From the IMG/VR virus record IMGVR_UViG_3300045988_004668: a stretch of DNA of 42,282 nucleotides. The stretch is one strand, 5' to 3'. The DNA comes from a virus. Below the pieces are notes generated by a model, which worked only from the letters and a program-made list of their open reading frames with translations, was not told the origin of the DNA and ran no database searches. Shown here piece after piece: positions 1 to 30,819 of this stretch (positions within the stretch are counted from its first letter, which is position 1; each line of letters opens with the position of its first letter). A program made the position numbers and the translations under genes.

Positions 1-119
1 GCGGCGCCCTCCCGCAGGGTCTTGCTGCAATATCGAGTGCACGCCCCGTCACGATGCCATGATACTGGAAAAGTCGCGTCACGAAGTGTCAACTTTTTCG
101 GCACCTTGCACAAAAAAGC
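1..119. repeat. Terminal direct repeat, copy A (identical to 42164..42282)
   Basis: Read base by base: gcggcgccctcccgcagggtc...gcaccttgcacaaaaaagc occurs at both ends of the window. Confidence 0.95.
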
Positions 120-143
120 AGGGCTGCACGCCTGCAGTCCCGC
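112..143 (-). terminator. Intrinsic terminator downstream of the 159..431 regulator gene
   Basis: Hairpin gcagggctgca-cgcc-tgcagtcccgc (118..143; 9 Watson-Crick pairs, one G-U, one mismatch). On the minus strand it is followed by TTTTTT (117..112). Confidence 0.6.
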
Positions 144-676: not shown

Positions 677-1098
677 ATCTCCTTGATCTCGATTCCGTGT
701 CTGTCCTGCATCATCTTCCGCTTGATGATATACTTCTGTGTCCGCGTCGCCCGGCTCTTCACGTCCTCGACGATCTTCTCCCAGCCGGTCTGCGTCTTCC
801 GCTCATAGCAGAAGTCCGCGCAGTACCGGATGGCGCGGATGCGTCTTCCGTCCGGCGTGGTGTATGCTTCCTGCAGCGTGAAGTCCTGCTGCAGCCGCAG
901 CTCGCGGATGAGTCCTGCCTGCAGCATGGCTTGCAGTTCCCGAAACCTTCCGGCCTCCTTCTTGCTGTCAAAGCGGATGCCCTCTGCCATCTCCGGCTCG
1001 TTCCGGTACTTCCTGGCCTTCTGTATCTGCGCTGTTTTGAGCTGAGCGAGTGCCTGCTGCTGCGCACGCAGCGGCAGGTCTTCCAGCCGTATGCCTAT
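673..1098 (-). CDS. DUF1064-family protein (start uncertain)
   Basis: KYRNEPEMAEGIRFDSKKEAGRFRELQ...IRYCADFCYE...VEDVKS matches the DUF1064 pattern (KYxN..GIxFDSKxE, aDFxY, EDVKG). A GGAGGTG lies at 1111..1105 but no canonical start follows at normal spacing. The first ATG (990) would cut off the conserved KYxN segment. The long N-terminal extension in the ORF track (to 1425) overlaps the Rep gene and is not credible. Confidence 0.6.
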   Translation of the reverse strand: MGIRLEDLPLRAQQQALAQLKTAQIQKARKYRNEPEMAEGIRFDSKKEAGRFRELQAMLQAGLIRELRLQQDFTLQEAYTTPDGRRIRAIRYCADFCYERKTQTGWEKIVEDVKSRATRTQKYIIKRKMMQDRHGIEIKEI

Positions 1099-1850
1099 CG
1101 TCCCCACCTCCGTCTCATCTCGAAGTGAATATAAACGCCCTTGTTGACGGCGTTGCGGACATAGCTGATGGATGTCAACTGGTATTCCGGATACCGCTGC
1201 TCCAGCTGCACCCATGCGTTCTTTTCCTCGATGGCGTCTACCAGGCTTCCCACCTCGTCCATCGTGATCTTCCCGTCGTACTGGGCAGGCTCCGGCTGCA
1301 CCAGGTTCCGGCTCTGGTTCCAGTGGCGGAAGAACAGTTTGTCCTTCGCGATATAGTGCGCAAGGCCCGTTACGCCATCCGGCCCGAACTGCAGACGGAT
1401 GCTGTTTGCATAGCCGCGTCCCCACAGCTTCTCGATCTCATCGCGGTCGAGTCCGCCGCTGATGATGAGATGGTGGTGGATGCGGTTTGTCTTCTTTCCG
1501 TATTCCGTGCAGCTGATATACTTGAACTCCTTGCCGATCTTGGTGTACCGCCGCTTCAGACGGCGGATGTAATTCTGCAGATCGCGCTGAGCACCTTTTT
1601 TTGTCTCTGGCTCTTCTCCCGGCCGGTAGGTGAGATGCAGAGCGATGTCGTCTTCCGTGAAATTCGTATGTACCAGGCGCGTGAGTCTCTTCTCCGCGTT
1701 CTTCTGGTTAAGTCTTCTCTGAATCTCGCTCGTCGGCTTGCAGCGGCTACGTCTGCGGCCTGGCTTCTGAAACACCGGATATATGTCCGCGTCCATGTAA
1801 TTGCCGCAGACATATACGCTTTCGCGGATGAAGGTGCGCCCCTGATACAT
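1095..1850 (-). CDS. HUH-superfamily rolling-circle replication initiator (Rep)
   Basis: Three RCR motifs occur in canonical order: IALHLTY (motif I), RIHHHLIISGG (HUH), GLAHYIAKDK (YxxK). ATG at 1850 is preceded by GAAGGAGGG with a 9-nt spacer. Confidence 0.75.
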   Translation of the reverse strand: MYQGRTFIRESVYVCGNYMDADIYPVFQKPGRRRSRCKPTSEIQRRLNQKNAEKRLTRLVHTNFTEDDIALHLTYRPGEEPETKKGAQRDLQNYIRRLKRRYTKIGKEFKYISCTEYGKKTNRIHHHLIISGGLDRDEIEKLWGRGYANSIRLQFGPDGVTGLAHYIAKDKLFFRHWNQSRNLVQPEPAQYDGKITMDEVGSLVDAIEEKNAWVQLEQRYPEYQLTSISYVRNAVNKGVYIHFEMRRRWGR

Positions 1851-1907
1851 GGCCCTGTGCCCTCCTTCGGAGAATGGTTGCTAAGTTAAGATTGCTTACA
1901 AGCCTTA

Positions 1908-1927
1908 ATTCGCGCGTACGCGCGAAT
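1908..1927. repeat. Perfect 20-bp palindrome ATTCGCGCGTACGCGCGAAT, followed by an AT-rich run
   Basis: The string is its own reverse complement. Positions were checked against the frame of ORF 1886..2305. Confidence 0.9.
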
Positions 1928-1984
1928 ATATAATGTATATGGCCAGCCTGCCATCGTCAGTGCCGGGAGGCTGTCCCCGGCAGA

Positions 1985-2004
1985 CAGGGCGCAGCTGCGC
2001 CCTG
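1985..2004. repeat. Perfect 20-bp palindrome CAGGGCGCAGCTGCGCCCTG
   Basis: The string is its own reverse complement. It lies 58 bp from the first palindrome inside a 414-bp gap with no convincing gene. Confidence 0.9.
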
Positions 2005-2264
2005 TTTCGGCTAATGTTCTTTCTGAATGAAGTATCCTCGGCACCAGGCTGGCGGCCTTCCGTCTGCGCAGCCGTCCATTCCCGTCGGAAATAACTGGGT
2101 AATTCTTCCATAGCAGGTGCTTGGCTGCAGCATCCGGATTCCGTCCGGCCTCGGAGGCGTCTGCTCCGCCGCGCCTGCGCGGTACCCGCAGCGAAGCGCC
2201 GTCATGCCGCCCGGCTGCTCTTCGCGGAAGGCCCGTGCGCAGCTGCTGCATCCCTGCTTTCTCG

Positions 2265-2438
2265 TCACGCTGGCCCCAGCTTTTCTGTCTCGCATGCTCT
2301 GGCAATGAGCGTCCATCGCTGCTTCCATGTCATAGCCGCCGCAATGATGGCCCGCAGCCGGTCGACGCCCTCTACCTCGACCGTTCCATACGCCTTGTGC
2401 GTCACGCGCCAGCGAAAGTTCTGCGTCTGTTTCTGCAT
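2265..2438 (-). CDS. Hypothetical small protein (57 aa)
   Basis: Internal ATG (MQKQTQNFRW...) is preceded by AAAGGAG. The upstream part of track ORF 2265..2606 is just the VR2 region read out of frame. Confidence 0.45.
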   Translation of the reverse strand: MQKQTQNFRWRVTHKAYGTVEVEGVDRLRAIIAAAMTWKQRWTLIARACETEKLGPA

Positions 2439-2458
2439 CGTGCGCTCCTTTCTGCGCC

Positions 2459-2486
2459 GATCTGCACGCGCACAGGCGTGCAGATC
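2459..2486 (-). promoter_or_regulatory. Hairpin 16 nt downstream of the VR2-target stop codon (candidate DGR target-recognition hairpin)
   Basis: Coding strand GATCTGCACGC-CTGTGC-GCGTGCAGATC: perfect 11-bp stem, 6-nt loop, no U-tract after it. The apex GCGCACAGGC (plus strand) is identical to the apex of the hairpin after VR1. Confidence 0.6.
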
Positions 2487-2502
2487 ATAGGTAGATTCCG
2501 GA

Positions 2503-3177
2503 TTAAAGGCAGAAGCCGAAGGCCACGCCATAGGCATAGCTGGCGGAGTTAATGCCCGCGCTGCCGTCGCTGTAGACCAGGCAGAAACCCGCGGAGTTGC
2601 TGGCATACGGAGAGCGGAGCCAGTACCACCATGTTCCTCTTCCCGGAACTTCCTTCACGCGGCTGCGTTCCGAGTCAAGCAGTTCAAACTGTTCGTCTCC
2701 CAGATCGCCGGGCGCCCACTCAGCCGCCGCCTTTGCGCCGAACATTTCCGTAAACGACGGCAGCCACAGCTTGTCCTGCGTCTGCACTTCTTCGCCGTTG
2801 ATCTTCTGCCGGATGGTGCGCGGCACGATCATCGCCTGCAGCTCTTTCGGCAGTCGAGGCAATACATCTTCGTTCAGCCACTTGCGCATCGCGCTGTCCT
2901 TCCAGCCGCCTTTGTTCGTCGCGTGGTCGTTCATTGCGTGCATCTTCTCCATGCAGTCCTTCAGTACAACCATCACGCGGCCTTCCTTCGTGACGTGCAC
3001 CACCTGCGCCGTCAGCTGCTCAAACACATCATTCTCATTGTCTGCGTCCGCCTCAAGGCAGATCGGGAACTCGCTGCCGACCTCCAGCATGATTTCCGCC
3101 AGGTTCATCTGCTCCTGCACGGTCTTCAGCTGCGCCCAGTCCGTCGTGATCGTCGTTCTTTTTGTGATGTCAAACAT
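2503..3177 (-). CDS. Stand-alone DGR target protein 2 (DUF6273-like / C-type-lectin-fold-type variable C-terminus)
   Basis: 224 aa, with AGGAGG upstream of the ATG at 3177. NKGGWKDSAMRKWLN...DKLWLPSFTEMFG...WWYWLRSPYASNSAGFCLVYSDGSAGINSASYAYGVAFGFCL parallels the C-terminal domain of the 30922..32583 protein. The last 34 codons are VR2. Confidence 0.85.
   Translation of the reverse strand: MFDITKRTTITTDWAQLKTVQEQMNLAEIMLEVGSEFPICLEADADNENDVFEQLTAQVVHVTKEGRVMVVLKDCMEKMHAMNDHATNKGGWKDSAMRKWLNEDVLPRLPKELQAMIVPRTIRQKINGEEVQTQDKLWLPSFTEMFGAKAAAEWAPGDLGDEQFELLDSERSRVKEVPGRGTWWYWLRSPYASNSAGFCLVYSDGSAGINSASYAYGVAFGFCL
2509..2610 (-). repeat. DGR variable repeat 2 (VR2), remote from the cassette
   Basis: Aligns without gaps to TR 30200..30301. 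There are 15 mismatches, all where TR has T on the plus strand (A on the coding strand). The first non-A mismatch is at 2611, after which homology decays. Confidence 0.88.
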
Positions 3178-3201
3178 ATCTTTTCCTCCTGAATCTGTCC
3201 G

Positions 3202-3537
3202 TCAGCCCATCATCTCTGCCAAATCGAGCAGCAGTCCTATGGTCTCGTCGTACTTTGCTTCCAGCCGCAGGGCGCAGTTCTCCATGCTCTCGTCTCCGAA
3301 CGGGCAGGCGAAGTGTCTGGCCTCGTCGCAGACCTGCCGCCCACATTCGTTCGCCAGTTCTACGATCTCCCTGGCCCCCTTCAGACGTGTGCGCAGCTTC
3401 TGAAACTGTTCGATCTTTGCCGGGCTTAGAACCTGATGCTCATACAGCCCCAGCTGCTGCACGAGGTCTTCTTTCTTCTCCGCGCTCCAGTACCCGCTCT
3501 TGATGCCGCTGCAGCGCTCTGCCGTCATAGCCTTCAT
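3202..3537 (-). CDS. Hypothetical protein (111 aa)
   Basis: ATG (MKAMTAERC...) lies just after the upstream stop with GGGAG upstream. The longer track ORF (to 3735) overlaps the preceding gene. Confidence 0.55.
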   Translation of the reverse strand: MKAMTAERCSGIKSGYWSAEKKEDLVQQLGLYEHQVLSPAKIEQFQKLRTRLKGAREIVELANECGRQVCDEARHFACPFGDESMENCALRLEAKYDETIGLLLDLAEMMG

Positions 3538-3541
3538 GCCG

Positions 3542-4246
3542 TCACTCCCACGCTGCGTCTGCCTTCTGCGGCACAACCTGCTTGTGGTGCGCCCCGCATT
3601 TTTCGCAGTAGTAATACCGCGTGCTGCCGTCTGTCCGCTCCAGAACCCATGCGTGATTGCACCGGCTCCGGTCCGGAACCTTCGGCAGCCGCTGCTCCAA
3701 ACGTTCCAGTTTCCGCCTGCGCCACTCGTCCACATCGTCCCGGCAGTCGTGCAGCAGCATCATCTGCTCCAGCATGATCTGCACGTCCGCAATCTCTTCG
3801 GCGATGGCGTCTGCGTTGTCCTCTCCGCGCACGCTTTTGCAAAGCTCCTTCTGCAGCTCAGAAAGTTCCTCTGCCGCCACGACGCTCTGCATCTCCGCGC
3901 CCCAGGCTCGCAGTGCCCTGCTGCAAAGCGTGCGCATCTCATCCAGCGTTTCGTCGTCCAGGCCCGGTGCCGTGCCTTTGCGGTTCGCCTTGTTGAAAAC
4001 GTCCCACTGCAGCCGGTATCCTTCCAACTCCCAGAGCTTGTTTGCGATATGCTCCAGGCAGATGCGCTCACCCATACGCTTGTCGTAGTTTGCCGGGTCA
4101 ACGCACGCGCTGTCGGCCGTCAGAACGAACCCGTTCTTCAGCTTCGCCGTTACCACCGTGCATTTCCCGAACAGCGTCAGTGTCCGGATGTCCGCTTCGC
4201 CGAGAAGCGCGTCAATTCTCTCCTTGGTAATCTTAATGTCGCTCAT
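3542..4246 (-). CDS. Fusion protein: N4 Gp49/Sf6 gp66-family domain + MazG-like NTP pyrophosphohydrolase domain + C-terminal Cys/His cluster
   Basis: KITKERIDALL...VVTAKLKNGFVLTADSACVDPANYDKRMGERICLEHIANKLWELEGY is the Gp49/gp66 signature. AAEELSELQKEL...AIAEEIADVQIMLEQM is MazG-like. The tail has CNH...CEKCGAHH. ATG at 4246 follows AGGAGGG. Confidence 0.8.
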   Translation of the reverse strand: MSDIKITKERIDALLGEADIRTLTLFGKCTVVTAKLKNGFVLTADSACVDPANYDKRMGERICLEHIANKLWELEGYRLQWDVFNKANRKGTAPGLDDETLDEMRTLCSRALRAWGAEMQSVVAAEELSELQKELCKSVRGEDNADAIAEEIADVQIMLEQMMLLHDCRDDVDEWRRRKLERLEQRLPKVPDRSRCNHAWVLERTDGSTRYYYCEKCGAHHKQVVPQKADAAWE

Positions 4247-4260
4247 AGCGTATCCCTCCT

Positions 4261-4569
4261 TCACATTCCCGGTGTCTCAATGATGCGGACGCCGTATTCC
4301 TCTGCGCAGGTGTGCTCGATCTTGCAGCCGCGTGCGCCTTCCCAGCCCGCTGCAAAATATGCAATATCCGCTGTTGCAAGCAGCTTCAGGCTTTCGCCCA
4401 GGAACCAGAGCGGCCGGTTGCACGCCGGGGCGTTTTCAAAGTAGCTGTCGATGATCTCGACTTCGTCCCCGATGGCCTCTTTCGCCTGGCAGATCGCGAC
4501 CTTCCGCTCCGCAAGGATTTCCTCCTTGCTCTTGCCCTGCATGGGCTGCGATATGAATAGCTTCTTCAT
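4261..4569 (-). CDS. DUF4406 / nucleoside 2-deoxyribosyltransferase-like protein
   Basis: MKKLFISQPMQGKSKEE...LLATADIAYFAAGWEGARGCKIEHTCAEEYGVRIIE fits the DUF4406 pattern (N-terminal Rossmann start, GWExSxGxxxE). ATG at 4569 follows AGGAGG with an 8-nt spacer. Confidence 0.65.
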   Translation of the reverse strand: MKKLFISQPMQGKSKEEILAERKVAICQAKEAIGDEVEIIDSYFENAPACNRPLWFLGESLKLLATADIAYFAAGWEGARGCKIEHTCAEEYGVRIIETPGM

Positions 4570-8643: not shown

Positions 8644-9699
8644 TCAGCTCAGCGATGCCACAAACTCGTCGAACAGCATCCCCGCCGTCTTTCCGCCCAG
8701 GAGCTTGCGCGGATAGTTGTTCATCCAGTCCTGCACGGCGCTGATGTCCTCGTCCGGAACGGCGTCCAAATCTGTCCCCTTCGGGAAGAACCGGCGGAAC
8801 ATCCGGTTCTGGTTCTCGTTGGTGCCGCGCTCGTTGCTGCGATAGGGATGGCAATAGAAGACCTGCGTGCGCTGCTCGCCGGTCTCTTTGCTCGTCATCA
8901 TTCCCTCGTAGTCCATAAACTCGCTGCCGTTGTCCACCGTGATCGTCTTGAAGATGCGGCTGAACTTGTTGCCCCAGCGTCGCTCCAGCTGATCGAGCTT
9001 TTCCACGACGCACTCCATTGTGCACGCCGCCATCGGCAGAACCAGCTCTGTCCGCATCGCGCGTTCCGATAGCATGAGCGCACACTTGTGGCCATTCTTC
9101 TTTCCTTTCACCGTGTCCATCTCCCAGTGTCCTTCTTCCTTCCGCTCATCGATCTCCGGCGGCCGGTTCTCAATGCCTTCTCCTGGCGCCTGCCGTTTGG
9201 CCTCGCGCACCTTCTTGTATTCCCGCTTGTGCTCGCCGCGCTGCGGCAGGTCTTTGTTCGTGATGGAAAAGAAAACATCCCCGCTGTTGATGTAATTGTA
9301 GATCGTCTTCTCGCAGATGTCCACGTCGAACTTCAGCCCGCGCAGCTTAATCTCCATGATGACTGCCGCCGGGGAGTAGTGTTCCCGCCCAATCTTCTGC
9401 TCGATGAAATCATGCAGCGCGAAGTCGTGGCCGAGCTTAATCATGCCGCCTTTCGCCCGCTTGTTCTTCTCATACTGCGCCTGTGCGATGTCCGCCGAGT
9501 ACCGCCGCTCTGTCGTTAAGTTGCTCAGCGTATGCTCATACCACACCCCGTCGCGGCGCAGCTCGCGCCAGATGGTCTGATAGGTGACGTGCAGCCGGTC
9601 TGCGATCTGCTGGATGCTGGCCTTCTCACGCAGCATCATCTCGATCTTGATTCTGTCTCTGTACTGCAGGTGCTTAAACGTCCGCTTCATCTGTTCCAT
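8644..9699 (-). CDS. IS30-family DDE transposase/integrase
   Basis: 351 aa with an N-terminal HTH, HWEMDTV (first D), ITVDNGSEF (second D) and RGTNENQNRMFRRFFPKGTDL (E region). This is the IS30 family architecture. AGGAGG precedes the ATG at 9699. Confidence 0.9.
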   Translation of the reverse strand: MEQMKRTFKHLQYRDRIKIEMMLREKASIQQIADRLHVTYQTIWRELRRDGVWYEHTLSNLTTERRYSADIAQAQYEKNKRAKGGMIKLGHDFALHDFIEQKIGREHYSPAAVIMEIKLRGLKFDVDICEKTIYNYINSGDVFFSITNKDLPQRGEHKREYKKVREAKRQAPGEGIENRPPEIDERKEEGHWEMDTVKGKKNGHKCALMLSERAMRTELVLPMAACTMECVVEKLDQLERRWGNKFSRIFKTITVDNGSEFMDYEGMMTSKETGEQRTQVFYCHPYRSNERGTNENQNRMFRRFFPKGTDLDAVPDEDISAVQDWMNNYPRKLLGGKTAGMLFDEFVASLS

Positions 9700-9733
9700 C
9701 TGTCCGGCCTCCTATTGCCATTTCTTGCTTTTT

Positions 9734-9763
9734 ATTCTAAAGCTGATTAAGCCGAAATGTCAA
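9734..9763 (-). promoter_or_regulatory. Sigma-70-type promoter for the transposase gene
   Basis: Minus strand: TTGACA (9763..9758), 18-nt spacer, TAGAAT (9739..9734). It lies about 35 nt upstream of the ATG. Confidence 0.55.
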
Positions 9764-9769
9764 GCCGTC

Positions 9770-9804
9770 AAAAAAGACCTCCCTGCTGCGCAGCAGAGAG
9801 GTCT
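9770..9804 (-). terminator. Intrinsic terminator of the XRE-type regulator gene
   Basis: Hairpin AGACCTCCCTGCTG/CAGCAGAGAGGTCT (9775..9804, one mismatch) starts at the stop codon. On the minus strand it is followed by TTTTTT (9775..9770). Confidence 0.7.
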
Positions 9805-10045
9805 ATTCTTTTCCCAACAGCCAGTCCGTACTGACGCCCAGCACACCGGCGATGACCGGCAGTTCGAAGTCCGGCACCACGCGCTTTCCTGTTTCAATTC
9901 TGCTTACTGCCATCTGCCCGATCTGAAGCCCAGCCAGCTGCAGCTTCGCCGCCAGTGTGTCCTGGCTCATTCCGGCCTTTATCCGCGCCTCACGCACCCG
10001 CTCGCCGCATAGGTTGAACCGTCCGTCCAGAGTATAGAGCCGCAC
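9803..10045 (-). CDS. XRE-family HTH transcriptional regulator (CI/Cro-like)
   Basis: LCGERVREARIKAGMSQDTLAAKLQLAGLQIGQMAVSRIETGKRVV is a classic HTH_3 motif. GTG at 10045 follows GGGAGG with a 7-nt spacer. Confidence 0.85.
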   Translation of the reverse strand: MRLYTLDGRFNLCGERVREARIKAGMSQDTLAAKLQLAGLQIGQMAVSRIETGKRVVPDFELPVIAGVLGVSTDWLLGKE

Positions 10046-10157: not shown

Positions 10158-11033
10158 ATGTCTGTCGATTATTACGCTCTCCTAGGTGTCCCTAAATTCT
10201 GCAGTTCGCAAGATGAAATACGCCGTGCATACCTTGCGCAAGCTCGTTTTTTTCACCCAGACGCAGGGAATGTTTCGCCTGAGATCGCACATCAAAAAAT
10301 GCAGCAGCTCAATACGATCTACGATACCCTGAAAGACCCTGATGCCAGAAGGCTGTATGACGCTAAACTCCTTTCTCTGATAAGGGCCAAAGCGTCTCCT
10401 AGTTTTTCAACTTCGCCCGCGCCGCCCACTCAGCCACCACGTCACGCCTCGCGGGCGCCTTCCAGGTTTAAGCGATCTGCTGTCGCTCTCGCCATCATTG
10501 CAGCCACATTGTTCGGTTGTCTTGCTCTCATCTGCATTTCCTCCAATATAGGAAAACCTTCAGCCCCGACCGCAACGGCCGCTGAAGCAGCCAATACTCC
10601 GGTGACTGCGCAGCCATCTTCGCCGCCAGCTTCTACTATGAAGCCTTTTCCCGTGCCGGACAGCGGGGAGGTGTTGTATCACGATCAGCAAGATCGTGTT
10701 GCCCCTTTTACCATCGAAACGTCCGGCAGTGGGTACTACGTCGTTAAATTGAAAGATCATATTTCTGGTGTTGATGTGCTGTGCGTTTTTATCCATGCTG
10801 GTGACACCGTCGATGTTGATGTGCCGCTAGGCGACTTCGATCTTTTCTATGCTTCCGGCGACGTATGGTATGGTTTGAAGTGTTTATTTGGCGACGCTAC
10901 AGTGTGTTCAAAGTCTACCAGCCTTTTTGACTTCAGCGAAATAGACGGATATGTGAGTGGCTGGACTGTCACGCTCTATCCTGTTTACAACGGAAATATG
11001 CAGACAGTCTCCATAGGCATCGATGAATTTTAG
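10158..11033 (+). CDS. Membrane-anchored J-domain (DnaJ-like) protein with an uncharacterised C-terminal domain
   Basis: DYYALLGVPKFCSSQDEIRRAYLAQARFFHPD...LNTIYDTLKDPDARRLYD is a J domain with the HPD tripeptide (10254..10262). It is followed by a Pro/Ser-rich linker, a TM helix (AVALAIIAATLFGCLALICISS) and a roughly 130-aa beta-rich-looking C-terminal domain. This is the only plus-strand gene. Confidence 0.85.
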   Translation: MSVDYYALLGVPKFCSSQDEIRRAYLAQARFFHPDAGNVSPEIAHQKMQQLNTIYDTLKDPDARRLYDAKLLSLIRAKASPSFSTSPAPPTQPPRHASRAPSRFKRSAVALAIIAATLFGCLALICISSNIGKPSAPTATAAEAANTPVTAQPSSPPASTMKPFPVPDSGEVLYHDQQDRVAPFTIETSGSGYYVVKLKDHISGVDVLCVFIHAGDTVDVDVPLGDFDLFYASGDVWYGLKCLFGDATVCSKSTSLFDFSEIDGYVSGWTVTLYPVYNGNMQTVSIGIDEF

Positions 11034-11082: not shown

Positions 11083-14000
11083 CTAGTCTTCCCGCTTTGC
11101 CTTCTCGCGCTCTGCGATCACCTGGCTGCCCACACGCTCGCTGTACGGATTGTTCTTCGCGCTCTTGCTTCCGGTGAACAGCTGCCAGAGCACGGCCCGC
11201 ATCTCGTTTGTCAGCTGCTGCGGCCCGTCGCCGCCCGGCAGCATAATGCCGCTGTGTCCGTTCAGCGCATCGATGGCGTTCTCAATCTCTTCGCCCTTGT
11301 AGCTTCCGTTCCCATCCTCGTCGAACTGCGGCAGGATTTCCTTCAGCTGCACCCACGTTCTTGCCTCGATGCCGTAGCTGTCGGCGATCTCGTATTTCTG
11401 CTTTGTCGAGTCCTTCATCACTGCGAGCAGTGCGTCGCGCTGCGCACTTGTTCCATCCACCGCGTCGATGGCTACCCGCCACTTCTGCACGTCGGACACA
11501 GTTTTCTTTCCCTCTTCCGGCGCAAGCTCTGCCATACCGAGCGCCACGTCCTTCGCGCTCTGTGCGTCCAGCCCGCCATCAATCGCGTCCAGATACTTGT
11601 CCACGGCTCCTGCCAGCTTCAGCTCCAGATAGTCCGCCATCTCTGCGCCGGTTGCCAGCACGTCGTCCGCCTTCTGCGTCGAGGTCTTCACTTTGTAGTC
11701 GTCGAATACAGCCGTCTTTGCTTTCTCTCCGGCGTATTCATACAGCCCGCTCAGCATCTTCTCCCGCGTCTCGTCGTCCGCCGTCTGGAACACGTCGCTT
11801 GCGGCCAGCGCCACCAGCCTGCTTCCGACGGCGCTGCTCCACGTCTTATCGTAGACCTGCTTCTGATAGGCCGAGAGCTTGCGGTCTTCGCCGTCAACGC
11901 TGATGCTGCCCGGCGTATCGGACGGAACCGCCTTTGTGAACCCGCTTTCGTAAAGAGACGCGAGCGTTTCGTTCGTCGTCTCATCCGTCTCCACGCGCCG
12001 GTTGTGCAGGGTATCGCTGATCTTGCGCTCCAGCTCCGCGCCGCGCAGGCCCTTCATCTGGTTTTTGTTCGCCGTGGCCAGCGCATCGTCGTATGCCGCC
12101 GCAAGTTCCGGCGAGGCCCAGCGCACCGTGCCGAGCAGATACGCCTCCAGGTTGTTGACCGAGATGCCCGGCAGGTATGTGGCCGCTGCAGCCGCCAGGT
12201 CTTTGATGCCGCCGACAATGTCACCGCTGTGCCGGTGCAGGTATTCGCCCATGCTTCCGCCGTTCTTCACGACGTCCGCTGCGTCCTTCAGCACATCCAG
12301 ACCGTTCTGCCCCTGCTCCACGATGGTCTCCACAACGTCGGACAGCTGCTCCAGGCCCGGCGTGTCGATGCCGTACCACTTGTCGCCCGTAATGATGTTG
12401 CCGATGACGTCCGCAAGTTCTTCTCCGTAGGTGACGATACCAGCCAGGTCTCCCACCAGCCCCAGCGCCATTTCCTTTGCCACGCTTCCTGCTGTAAGAT
12501 TCCCGTCCTCGTCGCGGTACGCCTTGCCCTTGCGCTTCCAGAGGTTCATCAAGAACTCGATACCCTGCGCCCAGATGTATCCGCCGACGGCTGCCAGGAA
12601 CGCAACGCCCAGCCCGTGCTTGGCCTTGTTGTAATTCTCCGTGTCTCCGATTCGCTTGTAGTATTCTGCCTCACCGGCACGCTGCCGCAGCGCATTGTAG
12701 GTCTGCGAGCTGTCCGACTTGAACATCGTAAACGCCCGCGTCACCGGATTCTTGCTCTTGCGCAGCGTGCCCTGGTGCATCTCGTCCGAGGTGGACTGAC
12801 TTCTCTCCACCGCTTCGTTGAATACTTCTGCAACCTTCTGATAGAACGGGCTGCTGCCGCTGTCGATCTGCTCCTGGCTTCCGGTCTCCAGCTCCGGGAA
12901 CTCAGCTCGTACCTTGTTTTCCGCCCACGGCCACAGCACGCTCGCGGCCCAGCCGTCCATGGCGGTGATCGCTCCGCCGCCGAAGATAAAGTTCGTGAAC
13001 TTGTTTGTCTGTGTCCAGTTCGGATTTTCCTTCAGCTGCTTGGTCTCCGGCGTAGAATAGCCCAGTGTTCTCCAGTCCAGCTCCTGCGTGTACTTCTCAA
13101 TCAGGCTCCGGTCGATGCGCTTTACCTGTCCCGGCGACGGGAAGTTCTTGAAGTCCAGCCACGCACCCGCCAGTGGAATCGAACCCAGCTGCTTAAAGAC
13201 GATGGATGGGTTTGCCCCTAACACGGCGCCGATGTAATTGCTGAAGACTTTTTCTGCGCCCATGCTCACGCTGTCGCGTGTGCTGGCGGCCCCGCCCTGC
13301 AGCGTCTGCACCAGGTCTTGGATGTACTTCAGGCTTTCGTCGCCCCAGTCGTGGGTGATAATGTCCGCCATGGAGTTTTCCCGCTCGCGCCAGTTGAGCA
13401 GTGTCTGCCAGTTTCGTGCCGGAATCGCCATGCCCACGAACCGTGCTGTCTGCTCCACATGGCGCTCAAAGGCGTCGAAGGCGCCGATGTTGTAGCTCGG
13501 ATTCTTGGAGAACTGGCGGCTCTTCAGATTGCCGACGCCTTCTGCCGTTGCGTCGTAGACACCCAGCTCGCTCTTGGTGTAGTTGGAGTTGGTGTAGATC
13601 GGCGTATAATTTTTGCTCACAGCCTTGTCGTACCCGTAGAGAATGTTGGAAACGCGGTTGATCTCCTTCTTGGCAAACACGTTGTAGTATTGCTCCAGCG
13701 CCTGTGCCAGCTCCTGTTCTTCCGGCGTTAAGCTGCCGACGATTGCCTTCACGGTCTCCGGCGCCATGCGTACAGTCTTTCCCTGGGCGAAGGCCTCGCG
13801 CCGCTTGCCCTGGCTGTAGAGCGTTTTGTCGGCGAAGGTGCGGCCGCCTTCCATGTGCCGCAGGTTTTCCGTGCTCTTGCTCTCCAGGTACATGTGCACC
13901 TTCTGTGTCGGCGTCATCCATACCGTGATCGTGTCCCCAAACTTCGGCGGCTTGCCGACCTCCAGTGCGCCGACCAGCTGCGGAATCTTCACCTCGTACC

Positions 14001-17000
14001 AGATGCCGTCGTCTCCCTGGCCGTCTGCCTTCTTGGCCCAGTCTTCATGCTCCGTCAAGAACTCGCGCAGCTGCTTTGTGGCGCTTACCGTGTAGTCGCG
14101 GATGTCCCGCTCGCCCTTCTCCAGCTGCTTGGCCATGGAGTACCACGCGCTGTTCGGGTTCCAGCCTGCCATGCGCTGCATCACGTTCATCGGAGAGAGC
14201 TGTTCCTGGTTGAACAGGCTGTCCAGCTTCTTTCCCTGGCGCGCCGCTTCGCCTGCCTTCGTCTGTGCGCCAAAGTCCAGCTCTTTCTTGCTGTCCGTGT
14301 AGACCTCTGCGAACAGCCGGTTCATGTCGTCGTTGATGACGTTGTTCCGGTTGTAGAACTCCGTCCGCAGTCCGACGGCTGCCTTATACAAATCCTGCAG
14401 CGCGTTCAAATCCATGTCCGCGATCTTCTTGTTGTCCAGGCGGTGAACGATCTTCTCCAGCTCTTTCGACGGCAGGAAGTTCGGGTCGTTTGCCTGTGCG
14501 TCCTTATACATCTCGGCCAGGTCTTTCCACGTCGCGTCGTATTTCTTGGAATAGCGCATCTCGTTTGCTGCGCTCACTGCGTAGATGTCCAGGTCTCCGA
14601 GCACCTCGTCCCAGGTTCCCTGCAGTTCCTCCGGCGCCCGGTACTGATTCTTGGCCAGCCACTGCAGTGCCTTCAGCGTCTTCTTCTGCTGCTCCTTCAG
14701 CTCGCGGTATTCCCGCTGCCGCTGGCTCATCTCCTTGCGCTGCTGCCGCTCCTTCGCGCGGCTGAGTGCTTCGCGCTGCCGGGCGGCTGCCGACTTCTCC
14801 CGCTCCTGCGCGATCTTCACGCCGGTTCTGTCTCGCAGATGAACCTCCAGCTTTGCTGTCCGCGTGAACGTGCGCAGTGCTTCGTCCATCTGTCGCTCGA
14901 TGTTATCCAGGACTTCGTCTTCCGAAACATATTCCTGCCCGGCCAGAAGAGCGGTGTACTGTGCCAGGCTCATGTTCTGGCTCTTGCCTTCTTCCGCCGT
15001 CTGCACAATGTTCTCCAGAATCTCCCGGCTGTCCAGATCGTCCGCATGGAACATCCCCGGCAGCGTGTCTGCAAGCTCTGCGTTGACCATGTCGATACCA
15101 GCTGCGCTCGTATCGTTTACCAGCATAACGCCTGCTGCAAATGCCTTCTTCCGGAAATAGCCCCAGTCGTCTCCGAACTCATGCTTCACGCTCTCCGGCA
15201 CATAGATGCGACGCCCCGCAATCTCCGACCGTGCCTGCTGCAGATACTCATCCGCTGCCACTTCCATGACGCCTTCTGCATACATCCGGTCGAAGAAGGC
15301 GTCCCGGTCTTCCTGCGTCAGTTCGCCGTTCTTGAGCATCCGGTCTGCCAGGCCGTCGATGATCTGGTTGATCTCTGCCCGCCGTCCTTCCGGAATGGAG
15401 AAGATGCCCTGCATATCCTGCCGCAGATTCCGCTTTGCAATGATCGGCAGACTTTCTGCTACCGGCTTCGTCTCGTTCTTCTTGCGCGGCTTTTTCTCCT
15501 TCTGCTCAGGCTCTGCCGGTTTGCTCTCCGACGCCTGCTCGATCTCGCCGCCGGTTTCTGCCTGCGGTTCGTCCACGGAGAAACGCATACCCTTCAGACT
15601 TCTGGCGATCTCCATGCGCTGCTCGTCGTTCCCGGCCTCGTACTCGATGACGTTCAAGCCCGCCGCCTTCATTTTCTCCAGCCGTTCCGGCGGGCAATCA
15701 TCCGGCGCAATGCAGACCGGCTCGTCGAATGTGACCACGCGCTGCGGCTTTGCCTCGAAATATCCCGTCGGCATTTCTGCCGCCTGGCGGTACATACCGG
15801 CAATCTCCGTGGCAAGCCCGCCGTCGATGTTATACCCCTGCCTGCTGAAGGCCTGCTGGATGCGCATGGCGTCCTGCCCGGCGTTCTCCATGAGAAGGCC
15901 CGCGATCTCATCCATGTCATAGCTTCCGGCCGTCTTCTGCACATCTGCAACGATGCCCCCGATGCGCTTGTCCAGCTCCTGCAGCAGCCGGTTATATTCC
16001 TCTTCCGGCATATTCTGCAGGCGGCCCTCGTCTGCATGGATGGCGTCCACGCTTTTGTATCTCGGCGTCGCGACAGATAAGATTCCCTTGGCGCCCACGC
16101 CCCAGTAGCTCTCGCCCCTGGCGCTCGCCCGGTTCATCGCTTTTACGATGTTCTCCGCCGTGTACGCGCCGTGCGTTTCCCGGAAGCTCCTGCGCTTGCC
16201 GGAAGCCGTGAAGCGTTCCTTCCCATTGTAGATGCCCGGCTCACCCAGCACGCCGCGAATCTGTCCGCGTACCCACGCCTCGACGTCTGCATCGTCCACC
16301 GCCTCGCGGAGCTTATCCTGCGTGGCATAGCGGTCTACGCCGTCGCGCGTCTGGCCACCGTCTTCATAAAGCGCTTCTGCGTTCCGGATGAAATCCTCTA
16401 CACGTGCGTCGCTGATCTTGTCCCGCTGCCGTGCAGTGCGCGTCTCGCGCAGCTCCGGCCTGCGGCTGAGCGCATATTCATGGTCTGCAATCCAGGAGGC
16501 CATGATGCTCTCGCGTGCCGTTTCCAGCTCTGCCGCTGTCAACCGCTCGCCGGTCTCCAGCTTCACATACAGCTGCGCCAGCTCCTGTGCGCCGATTTTC
16601 TCCGTGTACTCCTGCAGCGCCAGATTGCCGAAACTATCCCAGACTTTCTCCTTCAGTACAGGCTCGATGTCTTTGCCTTGCTCTGCAAGATATGCAGCCC
16701 GCACGGCGTCGTCTCTGGCCAGCTGTTTTGCAAGCTCCGCTTCGTCCATTCTGGCCACTTCGCCCACGCGGCCGCTGATGACGCTGTAACGGGAGAAGAT
16801 GCCGCCCGCCACCTGGTTTGCCAGCTGCGCGATCTTCTGCTCTGCGGCGCGTCCGGCCTCGTAGTTCACCTCCCGCTCGACGATTGCGTTTGCTGCCGTC
16901 GGCGTCCAGGCGTCTGCCCCGTAGACCTTGTTGCGCCGGTCTGCCTGCGGGTCGATGCTCTGGCGAGGGAAGACCAGCGTATAGTCTCCGTATTGCGTAT

Positions 17001-20000
17001 GCCCCTGGCTCGCCTTCACAATGGCGACCGACGGCGATGGGATAGCGCCGAGCTGCAGCATACTGTCCATCTTCTTGCCGTCCAGATTGTGAATGGCCAT
17101 CAAGTCCTGCGTCTGCTCAACCGGCTCGTCCAAAGAGAACCGGGCCTTGACAGGCAGCCGCTTCTCTGCTACACTGGCCTCAGAAGCATCTGTGGGCACC
17201 CTAACAGGGCGGTTTTCCGCTTTAGCTGTACCATTCTGGTACTGACGGGGAGGCGCAGGTGCTTTCTTTTCGTTCTCATTCAGCTGGATGGAGTACACAA
17301 ATTCTCCATCCGGCTTTTTCCGTACATTTGCCAGCAGGTCATAGACCCGTCCGTCGATTTGCACGGTCTTCACGAAATATTCCCAACCTGTAAGTCCCTG
17401 GTGCGCTTCGGATGTTTTGCCCTGTTCTTTGCCGCTTCCGCCGTGCTCTGCGTTTTCGACCAGATCAAAAATGTTCCCGTCCGCTCCTGTGTTGATCTTC
17501 GCCTTCCAGCCTCTTGGCGAAGACTTCTTATCGCCGTAGACGTTCTTCCGCAAATCATTCTCATCGAATGTCGCGTAATAGACTTCACCATCTCGCGCTG
17601 TGAACTTCGCTGTGCGGCCTGCGTATTCATTCCGCATGATGTCCATAAAGGCTTCCATGCGCTTCTTGTACGGCAGCTTGCGGACGGCCTCGCTGGTTTC
17701 ATACACTTCAGTCCCGTCGTCCGTCTTTCCGACGTAATCCAGGCTGTCGCTCAGATCGGCATAGACCGTGTTCTCATCAGCTCTGGCAGGCGGTGCCGCG
17801 CGGCGCTGCTCCGGTGTCAGCTCCCGGCGGCTGGCTGCGTCTCGCGCTTCAATCTCGCCTGCGGTATTGCGGTAAAGATCGTAGCTGTCCATCCCCACGC
17901 CGTTCTGAATGTCAATGATGCTGTCTTCCAGCTCTCCGATCTTCGCTTCAATGGCGTCGTCTTCCGCCGTCCACCGGTTCAAATCCCACGGCAGCTGTTC
18001 TTCCAGCCTGGCGATCTCTTCCCGGATGTCCGCAATTCTCGCTTCCTTCGCCTCGTCCCGGTGCTGCTGCCAATACTCCGGCGATGCGCCGCTCGCAAAC
18101 CCTTCTGCCTTCTGAATGGCGTGCTGGATTTCGTGGATGATCGTCGCCTCTGGTGCCGAGCGCAGCTTGCTGTCCAGCGCGATCTTGTTCTCGCTTGGAG
18201 AGAAATAGCCCTGCGTATTGCCCGGCAGCTCCTTGAACTCTACACGCACGTTGCGCAGCTGCGGGTACGCCTGGAACAGTTCCTCGTGATCGATGACGTC
18301 CTCCAGCGTTGCGCTGCCTCTGTCTACGCGCTCGCTTAGTCTCCCGTATTCTCGGCCCCAGGTCTTGTCCAACTCCTGAAGGCGCCCCTGGTCTTCCGGC
18401 TTCCACGCTTCTGCAGAACCGGTGAGCATCTTGTCCACGAGCTTCTGATATTCCGCATAGTCCGGGTGGTTCCGGCTGAAGGCTGCGTCTCCGCCGCGAT
18501 GATACTTCATCTTGCTGTCGTCGATCTCGAAACGCAGCTTTCCTTCCATGCCGGTGTGCCAGCCGGTTTCCTTTCGCACGCGCTCATCGTCTTCGCCCTG
18601 CATCTGAAGCTCCTGTGCGCGGGCGAGTGTCTTCTGATCTGCTGTGTTTGCATTCACGCCGCCGTAGCTGTAGCGCTCTGGCGGCCCAGTCCTGCGCTGT
18701 GTCGCCGCTGCCGTCTCGCTGCCCGGCGTGGTGATCTTCCGCTCCTGCAGAACCGCCTGCGCCTCGCTGCGGTACTTGTCGGCGTTCGCGCCGAAGAAGT
18801 TGATTCCCGCGTAAGCGTCCGCGCAGATTTCTTCTTTGACGATGCCGTAAGCCTCGGCCACTTCCTGCCCGGATGCGTGTTCCGGCAGATCGTACACACC
18901 GCGCAGGTTCTTGAGGTACTTGTCCATTATCGCGTCGAACTCTTCCCGGCTGTACTGTTCGACGATGGCCCGCTCGATCTGCCGCACAAGCCCCGGATTG
19001 TTGGCCGCGTAATCATGGAAGGCCTCGTGGTCTGCGATCTGGTCGATGTTCAGATAGCGGTGGTCTGCCTGGATGATGATGCCGTTTTCTGTGTAGACGC
19101 CGCGTGCCGCGCTCACCGAGCCATCTGCCTGGCGGATGCGGATGGAACCGAGCACATACGTCACCGGTTTCCCGGTCTCATAGGAAATGCGCTGCGCCGT
19201 CTGCTGCATCTGCGCATCCCAGTGAGATTCCGGCATGACCTGAATCTCGCGTTCCTCCGTTCCGTTCGGCAGGCCCAGGCTCTGGCTGCTTACTTTTTCG
19301 AGCCGTAGAGTTCGTCCAAGATTCTCTCTTTCAACAGCTGTTCTGCCCTGGTTAAAGGTGCGTTGTGGTCTGCCTTCTGCCAGGATTCCACTCTGTCCGC
19401 CGGTACTCTCACCGAGAATCCGTCCGCCGTCTCCATCAGGTAGCTGCTCGCTCTGCTGTTCTGTGCCTGGCTGCTGCCCGGCTGGAAGCTGTTCTGTGCC
19501 ATTGTTCATTCCTCCTTCATGCGTTGTTGCTTCATTCTGTACGCCGGGCTGCTGGCTCCCTGGCACCTGCTGCGCGGCAGTGTTGACCGGCTGCTGATTT
19601 TGTGCCTGCACGTTTCCGGACACGACCGCTTCGATGTCCGCGTCCGTCATCTGCCGCATGACGTTCTGCACTTCCGGGAAAGAAAGCAGCTTGCTGAGAA
19701 CTTCGCCATCTGTGATCTGCCCGCGATAGAACGCCTCAATGCCGCGTGCCATCGACTGTGCGCGTTTTCCGCTCACGCCCATGGTCTCCAGGCGTTCCAG
19801 CGGTGTGGCAGTCTGTTCGGTCTGCACCTGCTGCGGCGTCAGCAGCCCAGCTTCCTGCTGCGTGCTCTGTTCCAACTGCTGCGGCTGCACGGCTGCGGCC
19901 TGCGCCGCCGTCGGAAGACTTGGCTGCTGTGCCTGCTGGTTTTGTTCCGCTGCCTGCACTGCAATCTGCGCAGCCGCTGCCGCTGCGTTCCCATTTTGCA

Positions 20001-28253: not shown

Positions 28254-28834
28254 GCCGTCACCTCTGTCCATCCATACACGCCCGGCTCCCACGTGTTCGC
28301 GTCCACATCGCTCGTCCAGTGTTTGCCGTTGCGGCTCACTTTTGCGCCCTTGGCGTAGGCATCCGTGCTGCCCACCGGCTGGCTCCACTCCGGCCATTCC
28401 TCTGCCGGGTCAGAGATGCCCACCCACAGCGACGGGCTGTCCTCCGGTTTCCAGCCCGCCTGCGAGGTGTGCGCCTTCAGGCATTTGTAGAGCTTGCCGC
28501 TGCGCTCCCTGATCTGCCCCACAGTGTAGGCCACCGGGTATTTCCATGGGCTGAACAGCTCCGCGTGTTCACCGGCCGTCACGCCGTCGATACTTCCGTT
28601 CTCAGCCAGTGTGACAAATGCGATGGCGCTTGCCGCCTGGTTTTCCTGCAGGAATGTTCCGGTGTCACGTTTTACCAGGATGATCTGCGACAGCAGCATG
28701 GGCGTTCCGCCCACGGCCACGCCTTCGGCCTCATCCTCTCCGCATAGCAGCCAGAACCCGTCCGGATGCCTGCGGATATAATCAGGGGCTTCCGTCAGTG
28801 CAATCACGCCCCCGTCCTTCCGAATTTCGTACAT
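28250..28834 (-). CDS. Protein with two CBM5/12-like carbohydrate-binding repeats
   Basis: YTVGQIRERSGKLYKCLKAHTSQAGWKPEDSPSLW and AYAKGAKVSRNGKHWTSDVDANTWEPGVYGW fit the chitin-binding type-3 aromatic pattern. ATG at 28834 follows AAAGGAG and lies 31 nt inside the RT gene 3' end. Confidence 0.6.
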   Translation of the reverse strand: MYEIRKDGGVIALTEAPDYIRRHPDGFWLLCGEDEAEGVAVGGTPMLLSQIILVKRDTGTFLQENQAASAIAFVTLAENGSIDGVTAGEHAELFSPWKYPVAYTVGQIRERSGKLYKCLKAHTSQAGWKPEDSPSLWVGISDPAEEWPEWSQPVGSTDAYAKGAKVSRNGKHWTSDVDANTWEPGVYGWTEVTA

Positions 28835-29961
28835 TGATGGTCTCCTTTCTCCCCGAACAGCTTTCGATACAGCTTGTCCGTCTTCCGCAGCACCTTCCAG
28901 CTGTTTCCCCGTCGCATGTGGCCCTTCCAGCTCTCATACGACGTGCGCACGTCTTCTTCCGTCATGCGCCCGTCATCTACCCACCGCCGGAACTTCCGCA
29001 GCTTCTGCCGCATCTTTCTGGTGCTTTTGCGCTGCACCTTCCGAATGACGCCGCCGGTCTGCGTCAGCTTGAACTTTGTTTTCAGAAACCGCACGCCCTG
29101 CCTGATCGGCAGGATGCGCGTTTTCTTCTCGCTCAGCTGCAGCCCGATACCGGCGCAGTATTGCCGGATGCGTGCGGCGCATTCCTCCAGATACCGGACG
29201 TCCTCGCAGATGAGATACCCGTCGTCCATGTACCGGCCGTAGCCCCGGATGTGCAGCTGCTCTTTGATGAAATGGTCAAGGCCGTTTCCCAGCATCAGCG
29301 CGTCGATCTGGCTCACCTGGCTGCCCAGTCCGAATCCTCGCTCGCCGAAGTCCGCCATGAAGCTCTCTGCCCGCTCCCGGACGCGCTCGTCGTAGAGCCT
29401 GCGCCGGTTCTCCCGATGAATCGGTTCCTGCGGTGCGGAGTTGAAATAGTCCGTGAAGTCGAACACCAGGATGCCGCCCTGCATCCCATGCTTCCGGTAA
29501 TGCCGCTGCAGGTGTCGGTTCATTCTGTCCATGGCAAAGTCAATTCCCTTGCCCTTCAGACTCGCTGCGTTGTCGTATATGAAGGCCGATGAGAACAGCG
29601 GCACCAGCGCATTGTCACATAAGCACCGCTGCACCACGCGCTCTGAGATGTGGACGCTCCGGATGTGCCGCAGCTTTCCGCGCTCCATGATGTCAAACTC
29701 ATGGAACCCCATCGTCTTCCACGTTCCGTCCATCAGCGCCTTCCGCGTCCTGGCCGTGTTCTCAGACAAACTCGCCAGATACCGCTGCGTCGAGCACTTC
29801 CAGCGCACGCCCTTGCAGCACGCCAGCCCCGCTTTGTATAGGTTCTCGTAACTGAATACCTGCTCAAAGCTGCCGCACGCTTCGCTCCTGGCCCGGCGTT
29901 TTGCTTCCCGCCCGGCGCGGCGTCTTTGATACCGGCCCTCTTTTCGCTCTTCGCTTGTCAT
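28804..29961 (-). CDS. DGR-type reverse transcriptase
   Basis: KLRHIRSVHISERVVQRCLCDNALVPLF, ASLKGKGIDFA, GLGSQVSQIDALMLGNGLDHFI (the SQ motif typical of DGR RTs) and YGRYMDDGYLI (YMDD catalytic box). It sits next to TR and Avd. Confidence 0.92.
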   Translation of the reverse strand: MTSEERKEGRYQRRRAGREAKRRARSEACGSFEQVFSYENLYKAGLACCKGVRWKCSTQRYLASLSENTARTRKALMDGTWKTMGFHEFDIMERGKLRHIRSVHISERVVQRCLCDNALVPLFSSAFIYDNAASLKGKGIDFAMDRMNRHLQRHYRKHGMQGGILVFDFTDYFNSAPQEPIHRENRRRLYDERVRERAESFMADFGERGFGLGSQVSQIDALMLGNGLDHFIKEQLHIRGYGRYMDDGYLICEDVRYLEECAARIRQYCAGIGLQLSEKKTRILPIRQGVRFLKTKFKLTQTGGVIRKVQRKSTRKMRQKLRKFRRWVDDGRMTEEDVRTSYESWKGHMRRGNSWKVLRKTDKLYRKLFGEKGDHQCTKFGRTGA

Positions 29962-30199: not shown

Positions 30200-30332
30200 G
30201 CAGAATCCGAAGGCCACGCCATTGGCATTGCTGGCGTTGTTATTGTTCGCGTTGCCGTTGCTGTTGACCAGGCAGAAATTCGTGGAGTTGCTGGCATTCG
30301 GCGAGCGCTCCCACCAGTTGGCTGCAGAGCCG
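30200..30332 (-). repeat. DGR template repeat (TR), 133 nt
   Basis: Intergenic copy of the VR sequence carrying 33 coding-strand adenines. In the VR frame it would encode 13 AAY (Asn) codons: GSAANWWERSPNASNSTNFCLVNSNGNANNNNASNANGVAFGFC. Confidence 0.92.
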
Positions 30333-30366: not shown

Positions 30367-30819
30367 CTATTCTTCCGAAACTCCGGCAGGCCCGTCCGGC
30401 AAATCCTTGTACCGCTGCCGGTCTTTCTTCCGGACAGCTGCCAGCAGCTTCGCTTCCTCCGCGATCATCGCACCCCACTGCTCCATGGCTTTCCCAATCC
30501 ATTTGCACCCTTCCGGGTTCTGCCGGGCCGCCTCGTACAGTAGCTGCAGCTTCGGGTCGAGATTCTGCAGTGCAATGTTTGCGCGTGTCAGCTCGTCCCG
30601 GCGCATCTGCGCCTCGTGCTGATTCGTCGGCCAGATGTTGTTGGCCGCTGTCGCGTGCTCATGCACGTCGCTGGCCAGCTGCATGATGCGCGACGTGAGG
30701 AAGAACGTGTACCGCTTCGGTGCCTTCATGCAGCAGCTGAGTGTGAACGCTTCCAGCTTCTTCGCCGTGTCCACGAACTGCATGCTGCTTTCGCTCCGTT
30801 TGGATTTGTAGACCGACAT
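30367..30819 (-). CDS. avd: Accessory variability determinant (Avd)-like four-helix-bundle protein
   Basis: 150 aa, helical and basic. KAPKRYTFFLTSRIMQLASDVHEHATAANNI fits the Avd/four-helix-bundle family pattern. It sits in the canonical position between target gene and TR. Confidence 0.75.
   Translation of the reverse strand: MSVYKSKRSESSMQFVDTAKKLEAFTLSCCMKAPKRYTFFLTSRIMQLASDVHEHATAANNIWPTNQHEAQMRRDELTRANIALQNLDPKLQLLYEAARQNPEGCKWIGKAMEQWGAMIAEEAKLLAAVRKKDRQRYKDLPDGPAGVSEE

Follow-up and report, generated by a model that had tools for sequence, protein, structure and literature searches.

A small DUF6273 protein encoded among replication genes as a second, remote target of a phage diversity-generating retroelement

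The diversity-generating retroelements (DGRs) of phages are usually explained as devices for tail-fibre receptor switching. In Bordetella phage BPP-1, the target protein Mtd carries a C-terminal variable repeat (VR) in a C-type-lectin-like domain, mutagenesis falls on adenines and cis signals stand at and after the end of the VR; N-terminal beta-prism/beta-sandwich domains attach the Mtd trimer to the tail fibre, and the gene adjoins the retroelement cassette. Here we describe a gene that shares the C-terminal VR, the adenine mutagenesis and the placing of its candidate cis signals, encodes a domain reported as C-type-lectin-like, and departs from the last two traits. It occupies positions 2503..3177 of a virus DNA of 42,282 nucleotides, IMG/VR record IMGVR_UViG_3300045988_004668 (the window, by which we mean this whole stretch at its full length), lies 14.3 kb away from its cassette in a block of replication genes, and encodes a small protein without such N-terminal domains.

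Small remote targets that consist of a DUF6273 domain have already been published. In Roseburia phage Shimadzu, orf43 is such a target and its diversification was seen in reads, 2% of the virion reads carrying 10-15 DGR-type mismatches and both VRs of the phage being modified; the gene was presented as one of 'unknown function' and its location was not discussed (bioRxiv 10.1101/575076). In Faecalibacterium phage Toutatis, a second VR gene belongs to the core genome and lies 17.5 kb from the template repeat (TR). This small target is paired with a large Hoc-like/immunoglobulin-like (Ig-like) target adjoining the cassette; where the DGR has been lost, the small gene is retained according to Egorov et al., who suggest a receptor-binding role (bioRxiv 10.1101/2024.10.15.618418). 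Faecalibacterium phage Lelie and phage CP11 have one large and one small DUF6273 target each (PMC11792537). Small proteins with DUF6273 only and a C-terminal VR are also found as tgt2 of nd4 and nd12 (Baykov et al. 2023), and the tentaclins are large targets that combine Ig-like domains with DUF6273. A global survey mentions non-structural viral DGR targets. A precedent outside phage attachment is provided by the DGR-diversified putative antigen sensors of multicellular bacteria, which would be part of putative conflict systems (PMC10907252).

The window protein falls into the type formed by Shimadzu orf43 and Toutatis gp24 (about 190-235 amino acids, DUF6273 only, VR at the C-terminus or close to it, distant TR). 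Like orf43 (209 amino acids), it is encoded far from the cassette and in a replication block; the two proteins are distant (34% over 63% of the query, E 5e-10), and Shimadzu, a temperate myovirus, has another replication module than the window phage. Toutatis gp24 lies in the early region and its VR differs from the TR by 12 adenine mismatches. It departs from the window protein in the position of the VR, which does not close the open reading frame (ORF): the VR is absent from the extreme 3′ end of the gene and lies about 120 nt before the stop codon. A tblastn search at E 1e-5 did not match gp24, the similarity being too low. nd12 tgt2 differs in being encoded inside the cassette and beside tail genes, not in a replication block, in being annotated as structural, and in having extra terminal helices and a DUF3310-like motif. 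The tentaclins resemble the large target of the window phage (target 1 below, with Big_3 and DUF6273 domains), while the small protein lacks the Ig-like domain of tentaclin or Hoc-like targets. The antigen sensors are cellular, multidomain proteins. Since homologous small remote targets had been described, the novelty implied by the earlier note, which was made from the letters of the window, is not supported and the window gene is a further case. What the present comparison adds is the placement of the homologues among replication genes and two instances that had not been annotated.

The cassette runs on the minus strand in the order target 1, Avd-like ORF, TR, reverse transcriptase (RT), and with the remote gene it comprises the following features.

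30922..32583, minus strand: target 1, the large target of 553 amino acids, with Big_3 Ig-like repeats and a C-terminal DUF6273 domain; it matches phrog_37900 and a Hoc-like PHROG
30928..31060, minus strand: VR1, with 18 of 18 mismatches to the TR (133 nt) at adenines
30367..30819, minus strand: Avd-like accessory ORF (150 amino acids) between target 1 and the TR, the canonical position
30200..30332, minus strand: TR; VR1 draws on all 133 nt and VR2 on the 3′ 102 nt (30200..30301)
28804..29961, minus strand: DGR RT, matching phrog_1423 (E 3e-81) and Pfam RVT_1 and containing LGSQVSQ and YMDD
2503..3177, minus strand: small DGR target gene, 224 amino acids with a single DUF6273 domain
2509..2610, minus strand: VR2, encoding residues 190-223 of the small target, 16 codons of which are variable

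The LGSQVSQ of the RT agrees with [ILV]GxxxSQ, the signature of DGR RTs. The Avd-like ORF has no Pfam match and matches the NCBIfam model DivGenRetAVD (NF033474) weakly (E 0.001, with 19.4 bits where the model requires 80).

A repeat family with three copies joins 2509-2641, 30200-30332 and 30928-31060. The earlier note had proposed that VR2 matches the last 102 nt of the TR with 15 mismatches, all at TR adenines, and an ungapped recount on the minus strand gave the same figures: VR2 differs from 30200..30301 at 15 of 102 nt, and 15 of 15 differences are at adenines. As this part of the TR contains 29 A, the probability of such a restriction arising by chance is 2.2e-10. Realignment placed the first mismatch at another base at 2611, outside VR2. 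One of the 15 positions calls for a reservation, the A at TR 30206 opposite the C at 2515: VR1 and all VR copies of the relatives have C here too, so that this is a fixed TR/VR difference, of the sort (IMH-type) that marks the end of a target, and not fresh mutagenesis. Within the shared 102 nt, 9 positions are changed in both VRs, 8 in VR1 alone and 6 in VR2 alone; judged from these counts, the substitution patterns of the two VRs are independent, as had been claimed. The TR is rich in AAC/AAT codons, and the 16 variable codons of VR2 allow about 3e16 peptides with no possibility of a stop codon. The distance of 14.3 kb between the TR and the end of the small target gene stands as well, because the window is circular: positions 1-119 are identical to 42164-42282, which leaves a unit of 42163 nt.

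Diversification was assessed by comparison between related genomes. Megablast with 1800..4300 as query returned no match among GenBank phages; close relatives are confined to metagenomic collections, and 16 IMG/VR contigs that encode the small target at 79-95% identity were compared. Among them, 28 of the 29 TR-adenine positions vary, against 16 of the 73 other VR sites; the flanks are almost invariant, and the variation in the alignment is concentrated in 2528..2618. The ratio of nonsynonymous to synonymous substitution rates (dN/dS) is 2.4 in the VR and 0.46 in the scaffold. In a large protein collection, 103 of 104 representatives of clusters at 90% identity had a unique VR2 peptide. The variable codons have position-specific residue preferences (e.g. 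Y at 209 and N, S, D or G at 204), and Tyr makes up 24% of the residues at AAY-derived VR2 sites.

The strongest sign of transfer comes from the sites that are not adenines. The cassettes of the relatives are of two TR/RT types, with an RT either about 99% or about 71% identical to that of the window, and the two TR types differ at about 10 non-adenine sites, while the small target is 79-95% identical throughout. At these sites VR2 agrees with the resident TR in five of the six related genomes that hold both: it follows its own TR in L014, L010, L015 and L016, and in L001 it does so except for the 5′-most 15 nt or so. VR2 thus tracks the resident TR, and therefore information passes from the TR into VR2; judging by these alignments, the 5′ boundary of the replacement is variable among relatives. 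Taken together, these comparisons show VR2 to be, at the level of sequence, a genuine and currently used target of the single DGR of this phage.

Three side observations belong here. The distribution of the two cassette types within this phage group (L105, L074 and L122 versus L055-L064) points to cassette exchange, as far as can be judged from the sequences. Some small-target proteins of one alignment (A2, P0051-P0067) are mosaic, the N-terminal part resembling a lineage 52% identical to the window protein and the C-terminal part resembling the window lineage, a pattern that would indicate recombination within the gene. In L011, at about 2600..2700, an N and a second, shifted VR fragment come right after VR2; misassembly at a hypervariable site typically looks like this, and VR sequences from consensus assemblies should be read with caution.

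Homology of the TR to both VRs stops at ...TTCTGC, and the sequences that follow the VRs have their own features in common.

2494..2507, minus strand: element TTTAATCCGGAATC after VR2, which includes the stop codon, is common to VR1 and is absent from the TR
30913..30926, minus strand: element TTTAATCCAGAATC after VR1
2459..2486, minus strand: hairpin of 11 bp with loop CTGTGC downstream of VR2 (DNA fold -13.1 kcal/mol, z -3.5)
30839..30880, minus strand: hairpin with the identical loop CTGTGC downstream of VR1

The shared 14-nt element, TTTAATCCRGAATC, has exactly two matches in the window, each just after a VR (0 in shuffles), and is conserved in the relatives. The 10-mer GCCTGTGCGC, which contains the loop, likewise occurs after VR1 and VR2 and nowhere else in the window. 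The spacing from element to hairpin differs, about 7 nt in one case and about 32 nt in the other. The 14-nt element and the hairpins are thus candidate target-recognition signals for this DGR group; they resemble the Bordetella phage DGR, where signals at the target end are accompanied by a downstream hairpin. That VR1 and VR2 have these cis signals in common argues that VR2 would be purpose-built as a target rather than accidental.

The following steps can be proposed. RNA from the TR (30200..30332) would be copied by the RT (28804..29961) and the Avd-like protein into cDNA, with errors at adenines, and the adenine-mutated cDNA would replace the 3′ 102 nt of the gene at 2503..3177. Targeting would probably depend on the G+C-rich end of the VR, the TTTAATCCRGAATC element and the CTGTGC-loop hairpin, which among the repeats of the window are common to VR1 and VR2 alone. 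The steps are those of the established DGR mechanism, and the role given to the cis elements is deduced from their conservation.

As for the protein itself, Pfam DUF6273 (PF19789) covers residues 70-222 (E 1.6e-24, 87.1 bits with a curated cut-off of 23.5), in agreement with the earlier description of a stand-alone 224-residue DUF6273 protein. Also in agreement with it, the Pfam search found no Ig-like domain, and neither a membrane helix nor a signal-like N-terminus was detected, the highest Kyte-Doolittle mean over 19 residues being 0.95. The protein is acidic (isoelectric point 4.9). An AlphaFold2 model built on a diverse alignment, which replaced an earlier run on a shallow alignment (pLDDT 58.6), is one globular domain (pLDDT 82.6, pTM 0.84) with low confidence only at the variable loop 192-210, and shows no separate attachment or trimerisation module. 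The DUF6273 variable domain has been reported as C-type-lectin-like. Foldseek comparison of the model with the PDB returned noise only; with BFVD, DUF6273 proteins were matched over the full length of the model (E down to 7e-11, TM score 0.6-0.7), both stand-alone and fused to tail-fibre-like proteins. A sequence-profile search of the PDB gave only a marginal match, in the ThomasA IgA protease, whose N-terminal domain is DUF6273; the paper on this protease holds nothing useful on the role of that domain. The C-terminus of target 1 shares 41% identity with residues 72-224. The family is very large: a search with a profile built from three distant members yields at least 1557 clusters at 90% identity, and some of these comprise thousands of sequences. 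Throughout the clusters, and in about five phage lineages, the ORF is preserved at full length together with invariant scaffold motifs.

The gene had been placed between a Gp49-MazG fusion and the Rep gene in the early/replication block. Pfam and PHROG matches bear this out, with three small ORFs intervening:

3542..4264, minus strand: Phage_gp49_66 and nucleoside triphosphate (NTP) pyrophosphohydrolase (MazG-like) fusion, upstream neighbour of the small target
3202..3537, minus strand: ORF of 111 amino acids with no assigned function, upstream neighbour, counted from an ATG with a ribosome-binding site
2265..2438 and 1886..2251: two small ORFs with no assigned function, between the small target and Rep
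1095..1850, minus strand: Rep, the replication initiator, downstream of the small target (phrog_3584, E 1e-69; Pfam REP_ORF2-G2P)

The setting is the same elsewhere. The window protein is homologous to Shimadzu orf43 and to proteins of Fontainebleau and Dulem virus 34, and in 10 of the 10 homologues examined, from about five phage lineages, the gene stands among replication or DNA-modification genes. Four of these are in named phages:

Roseburia phage Shimadzu: small target between DNA methyltransferases and Erf, single-strand-binding protein and replication initiator
Dulem virus 34 (L034), DGR loci 35648..36313 and about 21419..21535: small target between a methyltransferase and Rep
Acutalibacter phage Fontainebleau (L033), DGR loci 9330..9899 and about 35085..35200: small target between DNA polymerase I and a primase-helicase
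Faecalibacterium phage Toutatis: small target gp24 between methyltransferases and the replication initiator, upstream of antiterminator Q

In six metagenomic contigs of window-like, Shimadzu-like and Fontainebleau-like lineages, the small target is likewise found among replication genes. The structural modules of these phages differ, being sheath-bearing, tape-measure-bearing or with a P22-type portal. In three of the named phages, Dulem virus 34, Fontainebleau and Toutatis, we confirmed that a distant VR matches the TR with mismatches restricted to adenines. Each of the first two phages combines a DGR with a small DUF6273 target at a distance and a second target adjoining the cassette; neither target is annotated as a DGR target in the GenBank records, and a published Fontainebleau paper makes no mention of a DGR. 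Cultured phage-host pairs with this arrangement (Fontainebleau, Shimadzu, Lelie) make its function testable; Fontainebleau is a prophage of A. muris from the OMM12 consortium that can be induced, and the host of Shimadzu is R. intestinalis L1-82. As a separate observation, the small DUF6273 protein of a Shimadzu-like contig (L036, 6001..6999; P0125) is called as a product of 332 amino acids together with a DNA-methylase fragment, and in Shimadzu the DNA-methylase ORF and the small-target ORF overlap by 8 nt; P0125 may represent a true fusion, a frameshift or an error of gene calling.

The family occurs among replication genes of phages whose virions are very unlike each other, and this fits poorly with tail-fibre receptor switching. 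The reading that we would put first, while holding it only tentatively, is that the small target would be a soluble protein, made early or in the middle of infection and absent from the virion, whose variable face would bind a ligand unlike that of target 1; such a product would act inside the infected cell or after its release at lysis. We favour it because the early placement is conserved across differing virion types, because the protein has neither an attachment module nor export signals, and because the similarity of VR1 and VR2 within a genome is not above the level found between genomes. Identity at the variable codons is 0.30 within a genome and 0.33 between genomes; a likeness at the chance level argues for different ligands. 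If this reading is correct, the DGRs of gut phages use hypervariation for a second end that is as yet unexplored.

Several points weigh against a soluble protein of this kind, and some of them are also grounds for another explanation. The promoter-like and terminator-like calls of the early block are consensus matches only. The enrichment of Tyr in VR2 could come partly from the substitution bias of the RT. In L003/L074, VR2 is still of the other TR type and not of the resident one; recombination or mixed assemblies occasionally put VR2 and TR out of step. Some virion decoration proteins, such as Hoc and Soc of T4, are encoded away from the structural genes. The DUF6273 domain also forms the C-terminal tip of tail-module proteins, as in target 1, whose VR-bearing C-terminus has the 41% identity given above, and as in the BFVD fold matches that end proteins named tail-collar fiber or receptor-binding protein. 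nd12 tgt2, another small protein with DUF6273 only, adjoins tail genes next to its cassette; there seem to be two kinds of such targets, early-module and cassette-adjacent. Finally, the published authors favour a receptor-binding role, and the literature leans that way. All of the last three are what one would expect if the small protein were a receptor-binding or adaptor subunit of the virion, docking on tail or capsid, with a gene that simply lies apart from the structural module. In that case VR2 would broaden or duplicate the recognition of hosts or surfaces, as proposed for tgt2 and Mtd-like proteins, and the family would represent a detachable, widely shared receptor-binding module. We consider this possible, and less probable than a soluble protein acting off the virion: 10 of 10 homologue contexts are among replication or DNA-modification genes while the structural modules differ, the Toutatis copy is upstream of antiterminator Q, the modelled single globular domain offers no separate attachment or trimerisation module, and there is no shared selection between VR1 and VR2.

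A more specific proposal is that the small early-module DUF6273 targets would serve as intracellular antibody-like binders, pre-diversified so that variable host factors such as defence proteins could be neutralised or hijacked. There are hints in this direction, all of them weak: the neighbourhood includes genes for DNA methyltransferases, MazG-like, Gp49/Tad2-like (L035), nucleoside deoxyribosyltransferase-like and PAPS-reductase-like proteins, no export signal is present, and VR2 is independent of the tail-module VR1. We regard this role as unlikely on the sequences at hand; if true, these would be the first hypervariable counter-defence proteins. Two other roles were considered and not adopted as leading ideas. 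Receptor masking, in the way that T5 Llp blocks the phage's own receptor early, meets with the lack of an export signal and with a VR1/VR2 likeness at the chance level only. A role as specificity subunit for neighbouring DNA methyltransferases has in its favour adjacency and one methylase-DUF6273 fusion call (P0125), and was dropped because the window phage has no adjacent methyltransferase.

VR2 might also be a bystander, i.e. a duplicate of part of the target-1 variable domain, still with its homing signals, that is rewritten without selection for hypervariation. The small protein is indeed paralogous to the C-terminus of target 1, a scaffold dN/dS of 0.46 means moderate constraint only, the VR2 of one relative is out of step with its resident TR, and the small gene persists after loss of the DGR (Egorov et al.). 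This explanation is very improbable, however, in view of an ORF and scaffold motifs conserved over 1557 clusters at 90% identity in about five lineages, a TR design that rules out stop codons, residue preferences specific to positions (Y at 209; N/S/D/G at 204) and conserved, dedicated cis elements. That the TR/VR2 similarity arose by chance or misassembly is next to inconceivable: hypervariable regions are prone to mis-assembly, as in L011 with its N and duplicated VR fragment, but the adenine restriction alone has a probability of about 2e-10 and the same arrangement recurs in many independent assemblies and isolate phages. The overall interpretation of the earlier note holds for a remote, independently diversified target, a stand-alone domain and a position in the early block, and is not supported for the novelty that it implied. 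The cytoplasmic or early use of hypervariation that it suggested may apply, and gene placement agrees with it in all lineages covered.

The rest of the genome can be described briefly. Nearly all genes of the window are on the minus strand, in two blocks.

Late block: small terminase gene (41511..42245), large terminase, portal, major head protein, tail-like protein, DGR, then holin, endolysin-like protein, internal virion protein and, at the end, a polyvalent protein of 3706 amino acids
Early block, about 10045 down to about 150: helix-turn-helix (HTH)/rve-like, PAPS-reductase-like and deoxyribosyltransferase-like genes, then the Gp49-MazG-like gene (3542..4264), the 111-residue ORF, the small target (2503..3177), two small ORFs, Rep (1095..1850) and a DUF1064 resolvase-like gene
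9734..9763, minus strand: best promoter-like site at the head of the early block, TTGACA-18-TAGAAT (11 of 12 positions), a consensus match only
118..135, minus strand: terminator-like hairpin with T-run directly before the small terminase gene, a consensus match only

The hairpin at 118..135 is a possible end of the early block. The domain that accompanies Phage_gp49_66 is not constant: it is a MazG-like pyrophosphohydrolase in the window gene (3542..4264) and a Tad2-like domain (PF11195) in L035 (6106..6657), and both genes stand a few genes upstream of the small target. PF11195 is a family linked to anti-Thoeris proteins. Elsewhere in the early block, the HTH_38 and weak rve (IS30-like) protein encoded at 8644..9699 (minus strand) is the only integrase or transposase candidate in the window; phage nd12 also has an IS30-family transposase.

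Just upstream of target 1, a gene at 32580..34403 (minus strand) encodes a protein of 607 amino acids with weak matches to tail-protein PHROGs and no Pfam domain, and contains internal direct DNA repeats (32841/33216, 33017/33302/33590 and 33567/34071). The ORF of 3706 amino acids (11083..22203, minus strand) takes up a quarter of the genome and has the polyvalent domains LPD23 and LPD3 and a PBECR5 nuclease; the relative L035 has a version of 4015 amino acids, with ART-PolyVal in addition. Given its place after the internal virion protein at the end of the late block, this giant may be an ejected, multi-function protein. Between it and the early block lies the sole plus-strand ORF among those assigned to a family (10158..11033), which encodes 291 amino acids with an N-terminal DnaJ domain.

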